Below are positions 13,403-64,000 of a DNA stretch of 64,000 nt, one piece after another. The position numbers were made by a program, and so were the translations under genes. The notes beneath the pieces were generated by a model. The model was given only the letters and a program-made list of their open reading frames with translations, had not been told where the DNA came from and searched no databases. Position 1 is the first letter of the stretch; the number at the start of each line of letters is the position of its first letter. The stretch comes from Escherichia coli (GTDB lineage: Bacteria > Pseudomonadota > Gammaproteobacteria > Enterobacterales > Enterobacteriaceae), in NCBI RefSeq assembly GCF_051903065.1, contig NZ_CP178438.1; one strand, 5' to 3'.

Positions 13403-13858
13403 CGGTTTATCCCCGCTGGCGCGGGGAACACGTGTGGCACTCTGCGTCTGGTATTAAATCATTCGGTTTATCCCCGCTGGCGCGGGGAACACCCGCCACG
13501 CCGTGCGCATCAACAGATATACGCAGGTTTATCCCCGCTGGCGCGGGGAACACAAACCGAAACACACGATCAATCCGAATATGAGCGGTTTATCCCCGCT
13601 GGCGCGGGGAACACCGAAAAGGCACCGTGCCGGTGACGTTCAATTCCGGTTTATCCCCGCTGGCGCGGGGAACACCGTTTTCACTCACTGGCAATCTCCG
13701 AGCAGAGCGGTTTATCCCCGCTGGCGCGGGGAACACGTGCGAATACCGTGTAAAAAATTAGTGTTATTCGGTTTATCCCCGCTGGCGCGGGGAACACTCA
13801 CGGTAGCGCCACTGCGCGTCGGTGACGGGCGGTTTATCCCCGCTGGCGCGGGGAACAC
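13403..13858 (-). CRISPR. CRISPR array 1 (type I-E): 8 repeats, 7 spacers of 32 nt
   Basis: 29-bp repeat CGGTTTATCCCCGCTGGCGCGGGGAACAC at 13403, 13464, 13525, 13586, 13647, 13708, 13769, 13830 (61-bp period). Third repeat starts with A. AT-rich leader on the high-coordinate side, so transcription is on the minus strand. Confidence 0.97.
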
Positions 13859-17620: not shown

Positions 17621-18160
17621 TTATTGATTTTGTTCGTTATCGGCGTCGCCAGCCTGGTAATATTCCAGCGCCCAGCGGATACGGATAAATTCGGTTGGCC
17701 GCTGCTGGCGGCGGTGATGATTGAGCAGGTCGTCGCTCTCCTGACACCAGCGGAAAATATCGTCTGCCAAAGAGATAAGATTGACGGAACCGTTTAATAA
17801 TTTGACTGCGCGTCGTAACTGGCGCAGTAATTCATCCGGCGTTTTTACTGCCGACAGGCAAGTAAAACGCCCCTCTGACATTACCGCCGCCAGCTGTGCG
17901 GCAAAAGGCTGCCGTTCATCAATGGCTTTAACATTGGCGGCAACGGCGGCGACCAGTGCCAGTGCGGTAAAACGCCACTCTTGTGCTTCAATTTTCCACA
18001 AAGTGTGGGTCTGCATCAGCAGAGAACGAAACCCTTCTGACAAGCAAACATCATTAACCGTTGTGCTACGCCGCAGACTGGCACGATTGCCGCGTTTAGC
18101 CTGCAACTCTTCGTGCCATTTACGCAGCGTGGCTTTGTGCCCGTCTTTTACAATACTCAT
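17621..18160 (-). CDS. cse2: Cse2 (CasB/Cas11e) Cascade small subunit
   Basis: 179-aa ORF between cse1 and cas7. Confidence 0.85.
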   Translation of the reverse strand: MSIVKDGHKATLRKWHEELQAKRGNRASLRRSTTVNDVCLSEGFRSLLMQTHTLWKIEAQEWRFTALALVAAVAANVKAIDERQPFAAQLAAVMSEGRFTCLSAVKTPDELLRQLRRAVKLLNGSVNLISLADDIFRWCQESDDLLNHHRRQQRPTEFIRIRWALEYYQAGDADNEQNQ

Positions 18161-19725
18161 TCAGCAGCCTCCTGCTTTTTCTCCCTGGCGGCTTTAGCAC
18201 TTTGCTTCTCCGCCGATGTTGTAAAATATTTTTTGCGCGCGGTCATGACGCGTTTTAAATCAACGGGCTCATAAGGATTGGTGAATACACGCTCGTCAAA
18301 ATCCTGACGCGAGAATAACCAAATCTCCTTATTCCATTTGCTGAGTAATTCATCCGCATCCTGACCTTCTTCAATTTGGCGCACTAACCTCAGGAAGCGA
18401 TGCTGAGTTTTGTTCCAGAAGTCGATATCCACAAAACTGAAATCACCCCGTGCACCTTTTGGATCGGAGAACCATGCTTCTTTCAATGCACTCCGTAACA
18501 GACTTAGAATGCGTGAAGCCGTTTGCGCAGCCAGCCGCAGTTTCGGTATCTGGCCTTCTTTTTTATTGAGCAGCAGCGGGAAACGGTGTTCGTACCAACA
18601 GCGGGCTTTCATGTTGTCGAAATCATAGCCAAATCCCCATAGGCCTACTTTTGCCTGCTTGAGACTGCTGGCATTAAAGAGTTTCACCACCAGAGCGGGA
18701 AGTTCCGTATTGTTTTCTGACTTACCCGTTTCGATAAGGCCTAACCAGTCGCGCCAAATTAAACCGCCTGGTTGTGGTTTAACTGAGTAAAACTCGCCAC
18801 CCTCTTTAAGTGGTACACGGTAAGGCGTTAATGGATGCTGCCACATGGCATAATTCGCACCGTAATTTTTGGTCGTCATCAGGCTCAGAAGCGCGTCGTC
18901 CTGCTCACCGCAAATATCGCAGTTGCCGACTGTCGTGGTATTAAAATCAATACGAATACGCCGCGGCATTCCCCAGTACGCCTGGAGTTTATTGACCTGA
19001 TCATCGGTTACCACCGCACCGGCCAGTTCGCTGGTACGCGTCGGGCCAAGCCAGGGGAAAACCAGATCGTCAAATTTTTTGGGTAGCGGTAAGTCGGCTT
19101 CATCCTGCGGCATCACGTTGAGCCACAGTTTGCGCCACAAGGGGGCTTGTTGATTGCCCTGATACTCCTGCAATTCAATCAGAGTCGTCATCGGCCCACC
19201 GCCGCGTAAACCGGTTCGGTAGCCTTTGCCGCCTGACGGTGCATTTAACTGTAGGGAGAACAGAGCTAACGCGGAACAATGAGGGCATACGTGTTCAGTC
19301 ACGCCACGCTTAATAAAGTGGTCTTTATTAAACTTCGTTGTTTGAGCGCCGGGAATCTCAGGCAGTAATGAAGCAACCTGAACTTTATCTCCCGTGAGCG
19401 CCTCGAAATCCTGCATAAATGAAGGGGAATCTGGCCCAAACTGGAAAGCATGTTCTAAAGACAGCAATGCTTCCCGTAGCTTTTCGGCTTCCAGTCCGTC
19501 TTGCCAGATATCATCCCAACGACCATGATTTTTGGGCGCGAAACTGGTTTGTAGTAGCCCCAGTAAAAACTGCCATGCTGCTCCCTGGAGATCTGCTCGT
19601 GGCGCAGCGATATCGACAACATTTTCATCAGCCAGATCGACTGGCGCCAGTTTGCCTGTCGTTCCGTCTTTAAAACGAACGGGCAACCACGGGGTTGTCA
19701 GAAGTGAAAACGAGTTCATACGCAT
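18157..19725 (-). CDS. cse1: Cse1 (CasA/Cas8e) Cascade large subunit
   Basis: 522-aa ORF at head of the Cascade operon; alternative start 2 codons in (MNSFSLL). Confidence 0.88.
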   Translation of the reverse strand: MRMNSFSLLTTPWLPVRFKDGTTGKLAPVDLADENVVDIAAPRADLQGAAWQFLLGLLQTSFAPKNHGRWDDIWQDGLEAEKLREALLSLEHAFQFGPDSPSFMQDFEALTGDKVQVASLLPEIPGAQTTKFNKDHFIKRGVTEHVCPHCSALALFSLQLNAPSGGKGYRTGLRGGGPMTTLIELQEYQGNQQAPLWRKLWLNVMPQDEADLPLPKKFDDLVFPWLGPTRTSELAGAVVTDDQVNKLQAYWGMPRRIRIDFNTTTVGNCDICGEQDDALLSLMTTKNYGANYAMWQHPLTPYRVPLKEGGEFYSVKPQPGGLIWRDWLGLIETGKSENNTELPALVVKLFNASSLKQAKVGLWGFGYDFDNMKARCWYEHRFPLLLNKKEGQIPKLRLAAQTASRILSLLRSALKEAWFSDPKGARGDFSFVDIDFWNKTQHRFLRLVRQIEEGQDADELLSKWNKEIWLFSRQDFDERVFTNPYEPVDLKRVMTARKKYFTTSAEKQSAKAAREKKQEAAE

Positions 19726-20115
19726 CCTCTCGTAGAAAAGACCATCCCTGGTCGGTTGTCCATCACCATATTTTCAGATTTAGTTGGAGACTTAATCTGA
19801 GTCGGATAAAAGAAAAGACGTTGAATGTGATACGAAAATCGAACTTAGTTTGTCGTTTTGAAAGCAGACTTAGCACAAGTTGAAGCAAAAAAATCGACAA
19901 CATCGTAGTCCTCTTCACCGCAGCTTTTCACCGGTCACGAAAATACGCCTTGTAACGGTGTGACTCAACTCCGGATCCGGACATTATTTAAAATCTTTGT
20001 TTCTCATTAACTCATAGCAATTACCCATCTATCATAATCACAATAGCATTGATAAAATAAATCCATTCCCTGATTCTAGGGATTAACCAAGTTAGTGAGA
20101 TACAAAAATTGGTTC

Positions 20116-20144
20116 CTGTTCCCCGCGTCAGCGGGGATAAGCCC
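20116..20144 (+). repeat. Solitary degenerate CRISPR-repeat-like element in the cas3-cse1 intergenic region
   Basis: cTGTTCCCCGCGtCAGCGGGGATAAgCCc is 24/29 identical to the crRNA-sense repeat GAGTTCCCCGCGCCAGCGGGGATAAACCG. Stem CCCCGC/GCGGGG is intact. crRNA sense is on the plus strand, opposite to the cas genes and to both arrays. Confidence 0.75.
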
Positions 20145-20166
20145 TGGCGTCATCCGACGCCAGGGC
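20141..20166 (-). terminator. Strong hairpin 4 nt downstream of cas3 stop (possible cas3 terminator)
   Basis: GCCCTGGCGTC-atcc-GACGCCAGGGC, 11-bp stem; on the cas3 sense strand it is followed by the repeat-derived hairpin and a TTTTTG run. Confidence 0.5.
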
Positions 20167-20169
20167 ATC

Positions 20170-22869
20170 TCAATCAACCTTGCCAATCAATCCTTCCGTA
20201 GCCGAATACCCGCAGCTTTCGTCATCGGTGACTAAAATCACGTTTGCCATCTCCGGATCTTGCCGTTGTTCAATGCACCACTGCCTGAACGCTTCCCCTT
20301 CCAGTAAAGAAAATTCATCCCGATGTTTTTTCCACCAGCTTCGACGCACTCTGGCAACGCTCATTTCCCATGCGTGAGCACCGCTGGCATAAGGCTTCAC
20401 CACACCGTCAATACAGGTAGCCAGCCACAGGGAAACAGACTCTTCAGCCAGACGTGTCGACAGCTTTTCCGGGAGGTAATCGTTGATATTGGCGGCATAG
20501 CCGGGCCTGAAGTTCAGCATAAACTTTTTAGCCATTGCGCGATCGCAGTAATATTTGCCCACTTGCTCCTGCTCGCTGCGGGCAAATCCTTCCGGCATTA
20601 CCACGTCCTCACCGTAGACGGATTCAATAAGAAGCCGGGCTGCGTGTGGCATCTGAATAGCGCCTTGCTCACGCAATACTCGCTGCGTCAGCCAGATTCG
20701 CCCATGATCGGGGTAGACATATGCGCTGTTACGCATCGCACTACCAAACCATTCGTCACCCGGAGAGTCGTCCCAGACGGGGGCCAGAATCAGCAATTCA
20801 GGAGGGGAACGCTCGTCTTTTCCATCACGTTTTAACTGACCATTAATATCACGAATATGCCGTTGTAATCGCCCCGCTCGCTGGATCAGCAAATCAATGG
20901 GGGCCAGGTCGGAGATCATTTCGTCCAGGTCAATATCCACACTTTGCTCAATTACTTGTGTACAAACAATGACTTGAGATGATCTTTTTAAACTACAATT
21001 TTTACCAAAGCGTGCCAGCGTTTCCGTTTCAATTCGCTGGCGATCGCTAAAAGCAAAGCGGCTATGAAAAAGTGAAAGGCTGGAAGCAGGAATGACGCCG
21101 CGGGCAAGTAACTGACGATAAACCTTAATAGCGTCATCGACAGAATTCCGGATCCAGGCGATGCATTTCCCCTGACTTACCGCTGATTCGATACGCGCAA
21201 TACATTCTTGTTCGCTATGAAGCCAACCCACGCTCACGCTACGCTCAACGTCTTTGCGCGTCGCTACCCGGTGCGAATGCACATCGGATTTCGTGACATG
21301 CGTCAGCCAGGGGTAATCATCCTTTTCTAGGAACGGAGCTTCTTGCTGGCCCTCTGTGCCACGCGCAAAGGCGGCGACAAGTTTGTCGCGCTGCTGTTGA
21401 GATAACGTAGCAGAAAGCAAAATGACGCTGTTTCCGCCACGCACCTGTCGCTCAATCAACCCTTCAAGAATGTACGACATGTAAGCGTCACAGGCGTGGA
21501 TCTCATCAGCCAGCAGGATTTTGTTACTCAACCCCAGAAGCCGCAGATTATTATGTTTAAACGGCATCACTGCCATCATCGCCTGATCCAGCGTGCCGAC
21601 GCCAATTTCAGCCAGTAAAGCCTTCTTGTTACTGTCGGCAAACCAGGCTGCACATCCTTGACTGAACGCTTGTTCATCCGGTTCTTCTGACCCGACTAAA
21701 TCACCGGACCAGAGTGATTCATTAAAGCGTTCCATTAATGTACGGGCGCTGTGTGCCAGCACCAGGCTGGGGCGGGATTCTGGCGAAAAGAAAGCAAGCC
21801 AGGTTTTGACCAGCCGATCGTACATGGCATTGGCCGTTGCCATTGTTGGCAGGCCAAAAAACAAACCCTGAGCTTTATTCTCAGCCATCAACCTGTGCGC
21901 CAGGATAAGCGCCGCTTCTGTTTTACCTGCGCCAGTCACATCTTCCAGAATAAATAACTGTGGCCCTGGCTGGCTGATATCCAGATCCAGTACCTTTTGC
22001 TGTAATGGTGTCGGGTGCTCAATAAAAGGAAACAGCGTATTAATTCCGGTGAAAGGTGCGGTTTCTGCTTTTGGAGGAAAGACGGTTAAGGCGTTTTGAG
22101 CCTGAACTAAAGTTTTCTGCCAGTAATCTTTAATATTCATTGTCTGTGCGACGCGTGGAAAAAATCGCGTTGACGAACCCGTCCAGTCTGCGAGTACGAC
22201 TGTTGCAGAGATATACCAGGAAAGTTGTTTTAAAAGTTCAACGCCCTCGTCATCATCCCAGAATGTGGGAATCTCTATGAGCGGAAACAGTGACTTGATT
22301 TCAAGGAGAAAATCTCGTGCGGCAGCTTTGTCTTCAGGCAGGAAATTATCCAGTTCATCAATACGGTCAGGGGGCCGACCATGATGCCCGGTAGTCATGG
22401 GCATCCACATCGCTATTACACGTTTAAGTTTGCGAGTAGAGAGTGAAGAGGCAGGAAGCAATTCTTCGCATTCACTTAAATAATGATGCCACAACCAGTA
22501 GCCCAGCGTTGAATGAGAGATCTTTTCGTAATTCTTTCTTGCGCCTTCCGGAACCTTGAGTTGTGGGTGCAGGTAAAGTTGCTGAAATGAGCGGGCAAAT
22601 TTTCCAATATCGTGCCAGCACAACAACCAGGCGAAAAATTGAGCCGCCTGTTCCTTGTCAGAAATCCCTAATTGACGAAAATAATCAGCCAGCCCGAAGC
22701 AATTTCTTTTAACCATTAAATAGCCCATCGCGGCCACATCCAGCGAATGCCAGCAAAGAAGGTGATAGTCGTCACCCCCTTCTTTCTCGTCGCGTCGGGT
22801 TTTTCCCCAGAAATCAAAGAAAGTCACAATATTTTTATCCTTCAGTAAACTTAAAGGATATTTACGCAT
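20170..22869 (-). CDS. cas3: Cas3 HD-nuclease/helicase
   Basis: 899-aa ORF with N-terminal HD-like region and SF2 helicase motifs (DVTGAGKTEA, DEIH). Confidence 0.93.
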   Translation of the reverse strand: MRKYPLSLLKDKNIVTFFDFWGKTRRDEKEGGDDYHLLCWHSLDVAAMGYLMVKRNCFGLADYFRQLGISDKEQAAQFFAWLLCWHDIGKFARSFQQLYLHPQLKVPEGARKNYEKISHSTLGYWLWHHYLSECEELLPASSLSTRKLKRVIAMWMPMTTGHHGRPPDRIDELDNFLPEDKAAARDFLLEIKSLFPLIEIPTFWDDDEGVELLKQLSWYISATVVLADWTGSSTRFFPRVAQTMNIKDYWQKTLVQAQNALTVFPPKAETAPFTGINTLFPFIEHPTPLQQKVLDLDISQPGPQLFILEDVTGAGKTEAALILAHRLMAENKAQGLFFGLPTMATANAMYDRLVKTWLAFFSPESRPSLVLAHSARTLMERFNESLWSGDLVGSEEPDEQAFSQGCAAWFADSNKKALLAEIGVGTLDQAMMAVMPFKHNNLRLLGLSNKILLADEIHACDAYMSYILEGLIERQVRGGNSVILLSATLSQQQRDKLVAAFARGTEGQQEAPFLEKDDYPWLTHVTKSDVHSHRVATRKDVERSVSVGWLHSEQECIARIESAVSQGKCIAWIRNSVDDAIKVYRQLLARGVIPASSLSLFHSRFAFSDRQRIETETLARFGKNCSLKRSSQVIVCTQVIEQSVDIDLDEMISDLAPIDLLIQRAGRLQRHIRDINGQLKRDGKDERSPPELLILAPVWDDSPGDEWFGSAMRNSAYVYPDHGRIWLTQRVLREQGAIQMPHAARLLIESVYGEDVVMPEGFARSEQEQVGKYYCDRAMAKKFMLNFRPGYAANINDYLPEKLSTRLAEESVSLWLATCIDGVVKPYASGAHAWEMSVARVRRSWWKKHRDEFSLLEGEAFRQWCIEQRQDPEMANVILVTDDESCGYSATEGLIGKVD

Positions 22870-23061
22870 ATTTTAAAAATTATCTGTGATATATATCAGC
22901 CAATAAAACATTTATATTGTGAATAAATTTATGATTTTCATTTGAAATTCATAATAATAAATAGAGACAATATATTCACATAAAAAATATAAATTTAAAA
23001 AAGGGTGCAGGAGACCAAACCATCACAATTCAATACGCGGGGTTTTACCCCCGCGTGGTGG

Positions 23062-23214
23062 CTACTTCTTCGATTCGTAAGCGAGAACAGCCTTAAACTC
23101 CATACCACGTTCTCTGATACTCAACTCACACAACGAGTCACCTACCATCAGCGTGAATCCCAGTACTGTACAACACAGTACGATGATTGCCACAAGGGCA
23201 TATTTTGTCAGCAT
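23062..23214 (-). CDS. Hok/Gef-family type I toxin (HokE-like small membrane peptide)
   Basis: 50-codon ORF not in the track (below size cutoff): [50 protein letters not shown]. Hok signature (TM helix, SLCE, AYE) and a GGGAGG Shine-Dalgarno 7 nt upstream. Location matches the known hokX/sokX locus between cysH and cas3. Confidence 0.75.
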
Positions 23215-23478
23215 GTCTTGCCTCCCTGCAAAGAAGAGACTAACATTCGAATTGCTTAGGTTCGAACGCTGGCCTCAGGTTGATAGAAATATCGCCTGGG
23301 GCTTTTGTCCATCTGGAACCTCGCGAATGCTTAACGCCAGACAGCCTCAAGCACCCAACACCATTCTATACCTGTTAATTCTTCCAGCGGCGTTCACGTT
23401 TAAAATCAGGAATGCTGCTCGCAAAATAAAAACGCCCCCATCATTTCTGACAGAGGCGTTTAATTTATCCGGCAATAT

Positions 23479-39273: not shown

Positions 39274-39319
39274 GTGAGGAAGACCGGGCGGGAAACTGCC
39301 CGGCCTGAACATACCTGAA

Positions 39320-39458
39320 TGGTTATCCCCGCTGGCGCGGGGAACATAAGTTCGACAACTTAAAAAATGATAACAAGTCCGGTTTATCCCCGCTGATGCA
39401 GGGAACATAATAAAAACTTTAACTAGTTCGGTTTATCCCTGTTTTTACAAGGAATATT
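39320..39458 (-). CRISPR. Decayed CRISPR remnant: three degenerate type I-E repeats with irregular spacing
   Basis: tGGTT-ATCCCCGCTGGCGCGGGGAACAT (39320-39347), CGGTTTATCCCCGCTGATGCAGGGAACAT (39380-39408), CGGTTTATCCCTGTTTTTACAAGGAATAT (39430-39458); intervening segments 32 and 21 nt. Confidence 0.8.
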
Positions 39459-40976: not shown

Positions 40977-41554
40977 TGGTTTATCCCCGCTGGCGCGGGG
41001 AACTCGTACTGACGGATAAAAATAATACCTTTTGCGGCGGTTTATCCCCGCTGGCGCGGGGAACTCGTCAACGTTTTTCATGTGGGCATGAGTTGGGGCG
41101 GTTTATCCCCGCTGGCGCGGGGAACTCTATTCGGCCTCGTGCTGGTCGTGACAAAATACCGGTTTATCCCCGCTAGCGCGGGGAACTCTGGCGATATTGC
41201 CTACCGCAACAAAGAAAATACGGTTTATCCCCGCTAGCGCGGGGAACTCATCCACGAATCCAGTGCAAATGAGTTTGTTGGCGGTTTATCCCCGCTAGCG
41301 CGGGGAACTCATTGTGACTACCACCGATAACCCCGCAACCACCGGTTTATCCCCGCTAGCGCGGGGAACTCCTGCATTCGCCTGCGGTTATCAGATCGCT
41401 AAACGGTTTATCCCCGCTAGCGCGGGGAACTCGCTGCCATTACTTCCCGCCAGCGTTGCTCTGGCGGTTTATCCCCGCTAGCGCGGGGAACTCGCAGAGA
41501 ATCGTTCGATTGCCCCTACATCTTCCGGTTTATCCCCGCTGGCGCGGGGAACTC
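40977..41554 (-). CRISPR. CRISPR array 2 (type I-E): 10 repeats, 9 spacers of 32 nt
   Basis: 29-bp repeat CGGTTTATCCCCGCTGGCGCGGGGAACTC at 40977, 41038, 41099, 41160, 41221, 41282, 41343, 41404, 41465, 41526. Repeats 4-9 have CTAGCGC instead of CTGGCGC; repeat 1 starts with T. Leader on the high-coordinate side. Confidence 0.97.
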
Positions 41555-63839: not shown

Positions 63840-63882
63840 AAAGCAACCTCAATAAGAAAAACTGCCGCGAAGGATAGCAGGA

Positions 63883-64000
63883 ATAAAAAAAGGGAGCACT
63901 GTATTCACAGTGCTCCCGGTTCGTTTCGCAGCATTCCAGCTACATTTGTTGCTCCCTGCTCATCCTTGACAACTTTTCCTCTGGCCTTGCGGCCAATCGT
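63883..64000 (-). ncRNA. csrB: 3' portion of the CsrA-sequestering sRNA CsrB (continues beyond window end)
   Basis: Minus strand reads ...CAAGGATGAGCAGGGAGCAACAAATGTAGCTGGAATGCTGCGAAACGAACC followed by terminator GGGAGCACTGTGAATACAGTGCTCCC + T-run; GGA-containing motifs and the expected position next to yqcC. Confidence 0.8.

Follow-up and report, generated by a model that had tools for sequence, protein, structure and literature searches.

What is the role of a repeat-like sequence that lies between cas3 and casA, on the strand opposite to the cas genes and apart from both adaptive arrays? This question is raised by a type I-E clustered regularly interspaced short palindromic repeat (CRISPR) locus of Escherichia coli, contained in a stretch of 64,000 nucleotides (nt) of contig NZ_CP178438.1 (RefSeq assembly GCF_051903065.1), referred to here as the window. 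A first-pass annotation of the window had noticed an orphan degenerate repeat and a strong hairpin in the cas3-casA spacer region, and had offered three readings: a relic of an old array, a cas3 terminator, or a regulatory RNA. We found that the repeat belongs to a degenerate two-repeat mini-array at 20064-20144 (plus strand). This element is probably a creR gene, that is, a degenerate two-repeat mini-CRISPR encoding a Cas-regulating, CRISPR RNA (crRNA)-like RNA of type I-E. Its anatomy, its match to a site upstream of casA, the statistics of this match, its conservation and its covariation were observed here. The regulatory RNA reading draws its support from a match flanked by a protospacer adjacent motif (PAM) and from compensatory changes, and the element has the sequence-level defining features of the regulatory mini-array family, the promoter at its target being a predicted one.

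A degenerate mini-array lies between cas3 and casA

The second repeat, psiR2 (CTGTTCCCCGCGTCAGCGGGGATAAGCCC, 20116-20144, plus strand), is near-intact. It had been annotated at the same site with 24/29 identities to the repeat of the locus (GTGTTCCCCGCGCCAGCGGGGATAAACCG); the site stands, and the identity was corrected to 25/29, the mismatched positions being 1, 13, 26 and 29. The stem, of 7 bp, is intact and the loop has changed from GCCA to GUCA, and the first 21 nt keep 19/21 of the repeat; an intact stem, counted as 6 bp, and a changed loop had also been described earlier. The 27-nt repeat core was searched in the 64 kb with at most 3 mismatches, and matches were obtained in the true arrays and at the psiR2 site alone, with 0 expected by chance.

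The first repeat, psiR1 (20064-20089, plus strand), was recognized by sequence and fold, and the weaker palindrome that had been placed upstream of psiR2 is a real pseudo-repeat. Its 3′ end (GGGATTAACCA) is identical to that of the repeat (GGGATAAACCG) at 9/11 positions, and the counterpart of the crRNA 5′ handle (AUAAACCG) is formed by its last 8 nt (AUUAACCA, 20082-20089), with 6/8 identities. Nucleotides 20067-20082 form a hairpin of 6 bp with a loop of 4 nt (UCCCUG-AUUC-UAGGGA, -7.3 kcal/mol, versus -15.1 for the true repeat), which has the geometry of the true repeat's hairpin minus one base pair and is weaker. The decay of the repeats is asymmetric: psiR1 retains the 5′-handle nucleotides, and psiR2 retains the hairpin and the 3′ handle. 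A Cas6e cut is predicted after G20136, which would leave a 21-nt 3′ handle and a mature RNA of 55 nt (20082-20136).

Between the two repeats lies the pseudo-spacer psiS (AGTTAGTGAGATACAAAAATTGGTTC, 20090-20115, plus strand), whose positions 1-21 (20090-20110) make up the guide. The inter-repeat segment had been annotated; its length is 26 nt instead of 25. The corresponding segment of the allele of strain N3 is exactly 32 nt, the canonical I-E spacer length, so the layout of pseudo-repeat, pseudo-spacer and pseudo-repeat proposed in the annotation is no over-reading. Compared with the N3 allele, psiS of the window is shorter by 6 nt.

As had been stated, the mini-array is in crRNA sense on the plus strand. 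All cas genes of the window and the two CRISPR arrays (13403-13856 and 40977-41552, repeat GTGTTCCCCGCGCCAGCGGGGATAAACCG) are on the minus strand, so that the element is inverted relative to both. An adaptive CRISPR array does not fit the element, given this inversion, its degenerate and unequal repeats, and the presence of exactly one pseudo-spacer in every strain of each allele.

At the positions where psiR2 departs from the E. coli repeat, it has the bases of a different I-E repeat family (GTTTCCCCCGCGTCAGCGGGGATAGGCCC), of which long, genuine arrays are found in metagenome contigs (loci L019-L022). The psiR2 of strain TUM14771 (…GTCAGCGGGGATAGGCCC) fits this family even better than that of the window. 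The likeness may be a coincidence, or a hint that the creR cassette originated in a lineage with that repeat.

The pseudo-spacer matches a PAM-flanked site upstream of casA

The psiS sequence was aligned on both strands, and seed-only matches next to an I-E PAM were allowed. This alignment of the segment with the cas promoter regions, suggested in the annotation, returned a target protospacer (AGTTAATGAGAAACAAAGATTTTAAA) at 19987-20012 on the minus strand (read 20012 to 19987), 77 nt upstream on the casA-sense strand. It is preceded directly on its 5′ side by the PAM 5′-ATG-3′ (20013-20015, minus strand, the non-target strand), ATG being one of the interference-proficient type I-E PAMs. Positions 1-21 of psiS match the target save 6, 12 and 18, and positions 22-26 are unmatched. 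In Cascade structures every sixth guide base is flipped out and unpaired, and therefore all 18 pairing positions among 1-21 match. The chance that three of three mismatches fall at sixth positions is 1/1330. When the spacer region was shuffled 20,000 times with its dinucleotides preserved, runs next to a functional PAM reached 12 at most, versus the 21 observed.

The runner-up psiS match in the whole window is 9 nt long and without a PAM, and a second target was not found in the 64 kb. The cas3 promoter was rejected as a psiS target, as nothing longer than 7 nt was matched in 22870-23200 or elsewhere in 13-24 kb. The locus of psiS itself has CCA at the PAM position, a non-PAM, as expected for self-avoidance.

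Local duplication could also leave a segment similar to a nearby site, and a decayed relic of an old or inverted array would then account for both the repeats and the similarity. Such a relic agrees with the strong degeneration of psiR1 and with the lack of the element in most E. coli loci of this cas type; in addition, some type III mini-arrays were judged to be degraded repeats by Shmakov et al. (PMC10120712). It is opposed by the match next to a functional PAM and by the 6-nt periodicity of the mismatches, and further by the comparison of alleles.

Guide and target change together among alleles

Six further alleles were found with their own AAG- or ATG-flanked, seed-anchored partial target nearby: strain 135/BEC1, N3/GF43/06-00048, TUM14771, L018, K-12 and Salmonella enterica subsp. 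houtenae. The spacer regions of the window, N3, TUM14771 and L018 (metagenomic) represent four mutually unalignable E. coli-type forms. Conserved across them are psiR2 with the hairpin behind it, the 3′ end of psiR1 and the few guide bases that come first, and a short block adjoining the target. The GGGAT[A/T][A/G]ACC[A/G] of psiR1 was retained in every E. coli-type allele, and its stem sequence varies. The 32-nt guide of N3 matches an AAG-flanked target at positions 1-17 save 6 and 12. The target of TUM14771, which lies on the guide's strand, has an AAG PAM and matches at positions 1-14 save 12, and that of L018 has an ATG PAM and matches at 20 of 27 positions. K-12, with cas genes and a spacer region unrelated to those of the window, shares this arrangement; its AAG-flanked target was re-found here. 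The S. houtenae element, located in a 712-bp region upstream of cse1, has a psiR2 of the window's kind and an AAG-flanked target with mismatches at 10, 12 and 18.

Two of these loci are unusual in their cas3 genes. In TUM14771 (L003) cas3 is a frameshifted pseudogene, with creR and its target intact. In S. houtenae ATCC BAA-1581 (L024, 8547-12566) cas3 and cse1 are in opposite orientation and are separated by a RelE/Xre toxin-antitoxin pair.

Strains 135 and BEC1-S17-ESBL-09 carry a 96%-identical version of the window allele. Between the window and strain 135, target positions 1-21 differ by three substitutions, two at the non-pairing positions 6 and 18 and one at position 15. The latter, A to T in the target, is coupled to A to T at guide position 15 (20104). 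There are five differences within creR, none of which disrupts pairing. Apart from 20104, these concern the psiR2 stem, where 20126/20131 show a compensatory double change from C-G to U-A (shared by strains 135 and BEC1), psiR1, where T20077C converts a G-U pair to G-C in strain 135, and 20117 in the unpaired flank of psiR2, with one change. In the comparison of L018 with the window, position 3 is changed from T to C in guide and target alike. The conservation of the stem, which the annotation had left to a comparison of related loci, is borne out: stems and spacer/target pairing are both kept by compensatory changes in related alleles. The guide/target covariation was weighted more heavily than the stem pair counts.

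Guide and target share a strand in some alleles and lie on opposite strands in others; therefore, an RNA or DNA hairpin between guide and target, or a duplication, cannot be the shared feature. This variation also argues against a decayed relic, as do the private guide/target pairs that seven alleles keep while the rest of the spacer region is unalignable, the co-variation of guide and target, and the compensatory nature of the stem changes. Given the functional PAM, the periodicity and the covariation, the relic reading of the annotation is not supported, and we consider it highly improbable.

A GC-rich hairpin at the junction of the probable creR gene and cas3

The annotated hairpin with an 11-bp stem was confirmed at 20141-20166, with G20141-C20151 pairing to G20156-C20166 around the loop ATCC (-23.8 kcal/mol). 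It shares 4 nt with the 3′ end of psiR2 and ends 3 nt short of the cas3 stop codon (20170-20172). A REP-like dispersed palindrome was ruled out, since the hairpin is single-copy in the 64 kb even at 3 mismatches and occurs in E. coli genomes at this locus only. It accompanies psiR2 in all four E. coli-type alleles, in which creR directly adjoins the end of cas3. Its stem shows one compensatory pair, changed from C-G to A-U, in TUM14771 and one intermediate with a broken pair in 06-00048. At the corresponding creR/cas3 junction of K-12 there is an unrelated hairpin of 9 bp. In S. houtenae, where creR does not adjoin cas3, the GC-rich hairpin is absent both after psiR2 and after the cas3 stop.

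Could the psiR2 stem and this hairpin be only a cas3 terminator or a stabilizer of the mRNA 3′ end, with no role as an RNA guide? Two strong consecutive hairpins do begin 3 nt past the cas3 stop on the minus strand, the GC-rich one is confined to loci where creR abuts cas3 and has its unrelated counterpart in K-12, and it has one compensatory pair. The sequence that follows the hairpin is CAUCUCAA on the plus strand and CUUAUCCC on the minus strand, with a U-tract on neither, and a terminator scan gave zero terminator-like sites at 20141-20166; a canonical intrinsic (Rho-independent) terminator was ruled out on this basis. A terminator or stabilizer would also leave psiR1, the spacer-length segment, the PAM-flanked match and the guide/target covariation unexplained, and S. 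houtenae keeps psiR1-psiS-psiR2 far from the cas3 end. A role of the hairpin at the junction is compatible with a creR gene and is included in that reading. As a full account of the element, the terminator is very unlikely; what remains of this proposal of the annotation is a structure at the convergent junction.

Because the hairpin is found with psiR2 wherever creR abuts cas3 and is absent in S. houtenae, we hold with moderate confidence that it is a structure of the convergent creR/cas3 junction, where the two transcripts would meet, and that it lies outside the mature regulatory RNA. It may serve as a 3′-end stabilizer or as a barrier to read-through.

Predicted promoters and the leader of casA

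The target is located 262-287 nt upstream of the casA start, within the cas3-casA spacer region, and overlaps a predicted promoter on the minus strand. This candidate sigma-70 promoter in the casA direction (19983-20010, minus strand) consists of TTAATG (20010-20005), a spacing of 16 nt and AATAAT (19988-19983), and lies inside or next to the target. Two creR promoters are predicted on the plus strand. The first (TTAACT-17-TATCAT, 20007-20035) has a -35 overlapping the target, and the second is an extended -10 (TGATAAAAT) at 20050-20058, some 6 nt ahead of psiR1. In every E. coli-type allele, the target overlaps or borders on promoter-like elements that point toward casA. The L018 allele has ATGACA-17-AATAAT (10/12) in the same register as the predicted promoter of the window; an AAYAAT -10-like hexamer stands at the equivalent place in the strain 135, N3 and L018 alleles, and in TUM14771 the PAM overlaps a TTTACA -35. 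Reading by eye, TGnTAWAMW, extended -10-like, was also found just upstream of psiR1 in the N3 and TUM14771 alleles.

The L018 allele was compared over seven contigs (L037-L042 vs L018). About 530 bp vary at three bases only, which lie in the PAM-distal end of the target and yield a perfect TATAAT on the casA-sense strand in 5/7 contigs. These contigs appear to vary in promoter strength.

If the casA promoter is at the predicted place, the mRNA leader would be about 250 nt. Over 19726-19975 (250 nt) the leaders of the window and of the strain 135 allele (L015, L016) show 2 differences only. The same two alleles diverge by 5.7% in casA coding sequence, by 3.6% in cas3 and by 10.2% in the target/promoter stretch. 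The near-invariant leader reflects either strong constraint or a recombination block.

Such a leader brings up an addiction module of the CreTA kind, in which the element would be the antitoxin half, the guide-repressed promoter would drive a toxic small RNA or peptide of the 250-nt leader, and the cell would be harmed if Cascade were lost or inhibited. A 46-amino acid (aa) open reading frame (ORF) is present in the leader (19903-19763, minus strand), with an AGAGGA Shine-Dalgarno sequence and a hydrophobic N-terminus (MLSIFLLQLVLSLLSKRQ…). At the same place the L018 leader has a 49-aa ORF (protein P0001) with AGGAGG, called by gene callers on more than 24 contigs. The near-invariance of the leader against the 3.6-5.7% in flanking coding DNA would suit a toxin, and other subtypes are known to have CreTA and a protein toxin repressed by CRISPR. 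On the opposite side, the two ORFs have no mutual similarity, the leaders are unalignable, the N3 allele is without a comparable ORF, and no match to the leader ORFs was obtained in NCBIfam or PADLOC. AT-rich DNA can be expected to contain ORFs of this size by chance, and the invariant leader is equally explicable as a recombination block. We give the toxin-antitoxin reading hardly any credence.

A terminator-like hairpin with a T-run (GACCAGGGATGGTC TTTTCT) was observed at 19740-19753 (minus strand), directly upstream of the casA ribosome-binding site. It is kept in loci with a short spacer of 97 bp, where it would be placed between cas3 and casA, and it could be an attenuator or a weak cas3 terminator.

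Distribution of the creR types

Complete E. coli genomes (5,426) were surveyed for the spacer region. The window type was found in 6 of them, and psiR2 with the hairpin in 16, distributed over three spacer-region types (window, N3 and TUM14771). The K-12-type creR region is present in 1,133/5,426. The same cas lineage with a 97-bp cas3-casA spacer, lacking both creR and the GC-rich hairpin, accounts for 2,424/5,426; these short-spacer loci (L006-L009: E. coli O157:H7, O104:H4, enterotoxigenic E. coli and others) carry CCTGTCGCAGG in the place of creR. The locus is thus polymorphic for creR presence, absence and type.

A metagenome scan with psiR2 and the start of the hairpin gave 6 hits, namely 4 genuine arrays of the other I-E repeat family, 1 new allele (L018) and 1 N3-type copy; the L018 type occurs on more than 24 metagenome contigs. 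A search of genome contigs with the Cas3 C-terminus returned 5 loci (Escherichia sp., E. albertii, Klebsiella indica, Phytobacter ursingii and a mis-binned metagenome-assembled genome), all without creR. Their cas3-casA spacers of 12-150 bp leave no room for it, so this search is uninformative on the conservation of the element. In the metagenome-assembled genome, labelled Collinsella sp. (Actinomycetota; L011), the Cas3 C-terminus is 96% identical to the window protein and is adjacent to a casA-like ORF; the contig is most likely mis-binned Escherichia DNA.

Phage-borne mimics were also sought. BLAST against phage records returned true CRISPR repeats only. In two pattern scans, viral contigs yielded 7 hits, which lack the handle GGGAT before the match, and 5 hits, which lack repeat-like flanks; these were treated as chance matches in AT-rich DNA. 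A viral copy matching the guide or target of the window allele was not found in the phage records or in either scan.

Proposed mode of action

We infer that creR is transcribed, that its RNA is processed by Cas6e, and that the resulting complex binds without cleavage and represses. This mechanism is proposed because an I-E CreR of S. enterica and an I-F1 mini-array have been validated and because an 'anti-Pcas' promoter, with a transcript toward cas3, has been mapped in K-12. Transcription of the plus strand would start from a promoter just upstream of psiR1, where promoter-like sites are present, and proceed toward the 3′ end of cas3. Cas6e would cut at the bases of the psiR1 and psiR2 hairpins, whose geometry is conserved, to release an RNA of about 55 nt in which the 26-nt guide stands between the handle AUUAACCA and a hairpin handle of 21 nt. 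A Cascade carrying this RNA would recognize the ATG PAM at 20015-20013 and form an R-loop over 20012-19992, the stretch where the match is seen. With positions 22-26 unpaired and the guide short by 6 nt, neither locking of the R-loop nor recruitment of Cas3 is expected; judged from published I-E biophysics, this would amount to binding without cleavage.

The bound complex would lie over the -35 and spacer of the promoter predicted in the casA direction, and over the -35 of one of the promoters predicted for creR. By analogy with S. enterica I-E CreR, this coverage would repress the Cascade operon and perhaps creR as well, giving a negative feedback loop that reports the availability of free Cascade.

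Several points weigh against this proposal. With a target 262-287 nt from casA, direct occlusion of the promoter needs a 5′ untranslated region of about 250 nt. The promoters are consensus predictions, and the scan yields about as many promoter-like sites in shuffled sequence. Cleavage at psiR1 by Cas6e is not guaranteed, because its hairpin is 1 bp shorter and much weaker than that of the true repeat. The stem covariation comprises 2 compensatory pairs in 6 sequences, a level reached by 41/500 shuffles; the modest statistics follow from there being only six distinct sequences. The alleles are few and some are related by descent. Finally, the absence of creR from about 2,424 E. coli genomes of the same cas type makes it dispensable.

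Relation to known CreR-type systems

Regulatory mini-arrays have been described in about 19% of bacterial I-E loci, typically in long cas3-cas8e spacer regions and transcribed opposite to cas3 (Shmakov et al. 2023, PMC10120712). The I-E mini-arrays have PAM-flanked partial targets at the cas8e promoter with mismatches at sixth positions, and an E. coli locus is illustrated there (PMC10120712). For E. coli the cas3-cas8e mini-array with an AAG-flanked target at Pcas was predicted, and an I-F1 mini-array was validated (PMC10120712). CreR was named, and a Salmonella I-E example validated, by Liu et al. (bioRxiv 10.1101/2023.03.10.532045), whose plasmid list includes a K-12 'creA'. The CreR of S. 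enterica ATCC 51960 repressed the casA promoter 8.6-fold through E. coli Cascade; the repression was lost on seed mutation and was relieved by crRNA excess or by AcrIE8 (10.1101/2023.03.10.532045).

The S. enterica ATCC 51960 element resembles that of the window in being a degenerate mini-CRISPR upstream of casA, with a psiR1 that keeps the 8-nt 5′ handle and a psiR2 that keeps the 3′ handle; its guide partially matches a PAM-flanked site upstream of casA, and no associated toxin is known for either. The guides differ (TAGATACAGTCTTAA… in S. enterica against AGTTAGTGAGATAC… in the window). The S. enterica guide matches 15 consecutive nt next to an AAG PAM, at a distance of about 140 bp from casA; the match in the window is 21 nt with mismatches at 6, 12 and 18, an ATG PAM and a distance of 262-287 bp. 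The 26-nt psiS of the window is also unlike that of S. enterica CreR, and the S. enterica allele has been validated experimentally, whereas the window allele is known from sequence. The validated Salmonella guide was not present in the one Salmonella locus examined, which carries its own allele.

The K-12 mini-array belongs to the same species and locus and lies, like that of the window, just past the cas3 stop, convergent with cas3, with a strong hairpin at the junction and a PAM-flanked, seed-anchored target; that of K-12 has AAG and lies near Pcas. Papers citing Pul et al. 2010 (PMC7074321, PMC10011333) refer to a mapped 'anti-Pcas' promoter in K-12 that gives a transcript of 150-200 nt toward cas3. 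The two elements are unrelated in sequence and accompany different cas gene lineages. In K-12 psiR1 is better kept and psiR2 is almost unrecognizable, whereas the reverse holds for the window; the guide match of K-12, with mismatches at 6, 9 and 17, is the weaker one. The K-12 type is common (1,133/5,426) and the window family rare (16 genomes, 6 with the window allele).

More distant relatives share the principle. The I-B CreTA of Haloarcula hispanica, like related toxin-antitoxin RNA pairs, as summarised in 10.1101/2023.03.10.532045, uses a degenerate mini-CRISPR RNA to guide Cascade to a partly matching promoter, where Cascade binds but leaves the DNA uncut, and couples cas expression to the availability of Cascade, both as proposed for creR. 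In that summary CreTA has a toxin gene under the repressed promoter, whereas no convincing toxin was found in the leader of the window. The Pseudomonas aeruginosa I-F1 mini-array is likewise beside cas3, with a shorter-than-normal spacer and mismatches at 6 and 12, but it differs in subtype, repeats, host and PAM (CC); there, Cascade and the mini-array RNA suffice for repression and Cas3 is dispensable (PMC10120712). Phage Cracr arrays have the same architecture and a short pseudo-spacer (24 nt) and target the casA promoters of Salmonella I-E loci; in contrast to creR of the window, they are phage-carried and used against the host, mimicking Salmonella I-E CreR (bioRxiv 10.1101/2024.10.29.618823).

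Significance of the allele series

The type I-E system of E. coli is a textbook system, whose regulation is usually described via H-NS, LeuO and CRP only. With CreR-type RNAs, a CRISPR effector senses its own free concentration: idle Cascade keeps expression low, and plentiful guides or the sequestration of Cascade by an anti-CRISPR raise it. The window indicates that a well-preserved creR allele exists in a natural lineage of E. coli. Because its guide differs from those of the validated Salmonella element and of K-12, it is a new allele of a known kind. The discovery is incremental, as publications of 2023 had already set out the mechanism and its occurrence in I-E loci of E. coli and Salmonella. 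Three aspects are mildly new. The match is clean, with 18/18 pairing positions, and the allele is arguably cleaner than that of K-12. The guide is 6 nt shorter, which corresponds to one Cas7 unit. A series of divergent guide/target cassettes is found in one species beside the creR-less 97-bp form. Such a natural series bears on the orthogonality of alleles, on the extent of pairing that separates repression from self-cleavage or priming, and on diversification driven by phage mimics.

A broader reading joins these observations. The cas3-casA spacer of E. coli and its relatives would be a swappable regulatory cassette, with at least 5 creR/target 'key-and-lock' alleles and the creR-less 97-bp form at one locus. 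Guide and target would evolve faster than the flanking genes and always in step, possibly under pressure from phage-borne CreR mimics. The loss of exactly 6 nt from psiS would give a Cascade with one Cas7 fewer, dedicated to binding without cleavage, and in some alleles the leader might encode a small toxic peptide, which would make an I-E CreTA. We regard this reading as unlikely.

Other features of the window

The window, which in the region of interest is 100% identical to strain 23CRST027, contains iap, a CRISPR array, cas2-cas1-cas6e-cas5-cas7-casB-casA, cas3, hok/sok and cysHIJ. The casA gene is at 18157-19725 (minus strand; the RefSeq start is 19719), and cas3, convergent with creR, is at 20170-22869 (minus strand). 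Rfam gave zero matches at E ≤ 1 over 19700-20250, and the gathering-score matches in the window are sok and CsrB only: the sok antitoxin RNA of the hok/sok locus at 23199-23356, in the interval from cas3 to cysH, and a CsrB of which the window, at its edge (63882-64000), contains the 3′ part.

Two further degenerate repeats (GTTCCCCGCGCCAGCGGGGATAACCAT and GTTCCCTGCATCAGCGGGGATAAACCG) were observed at 39319-39406, spaced by 61 bp and about 1.6 kb from the second array (40977-41552). This pair looks like the remnant of a decayed array and offers a useful contrast to creR.

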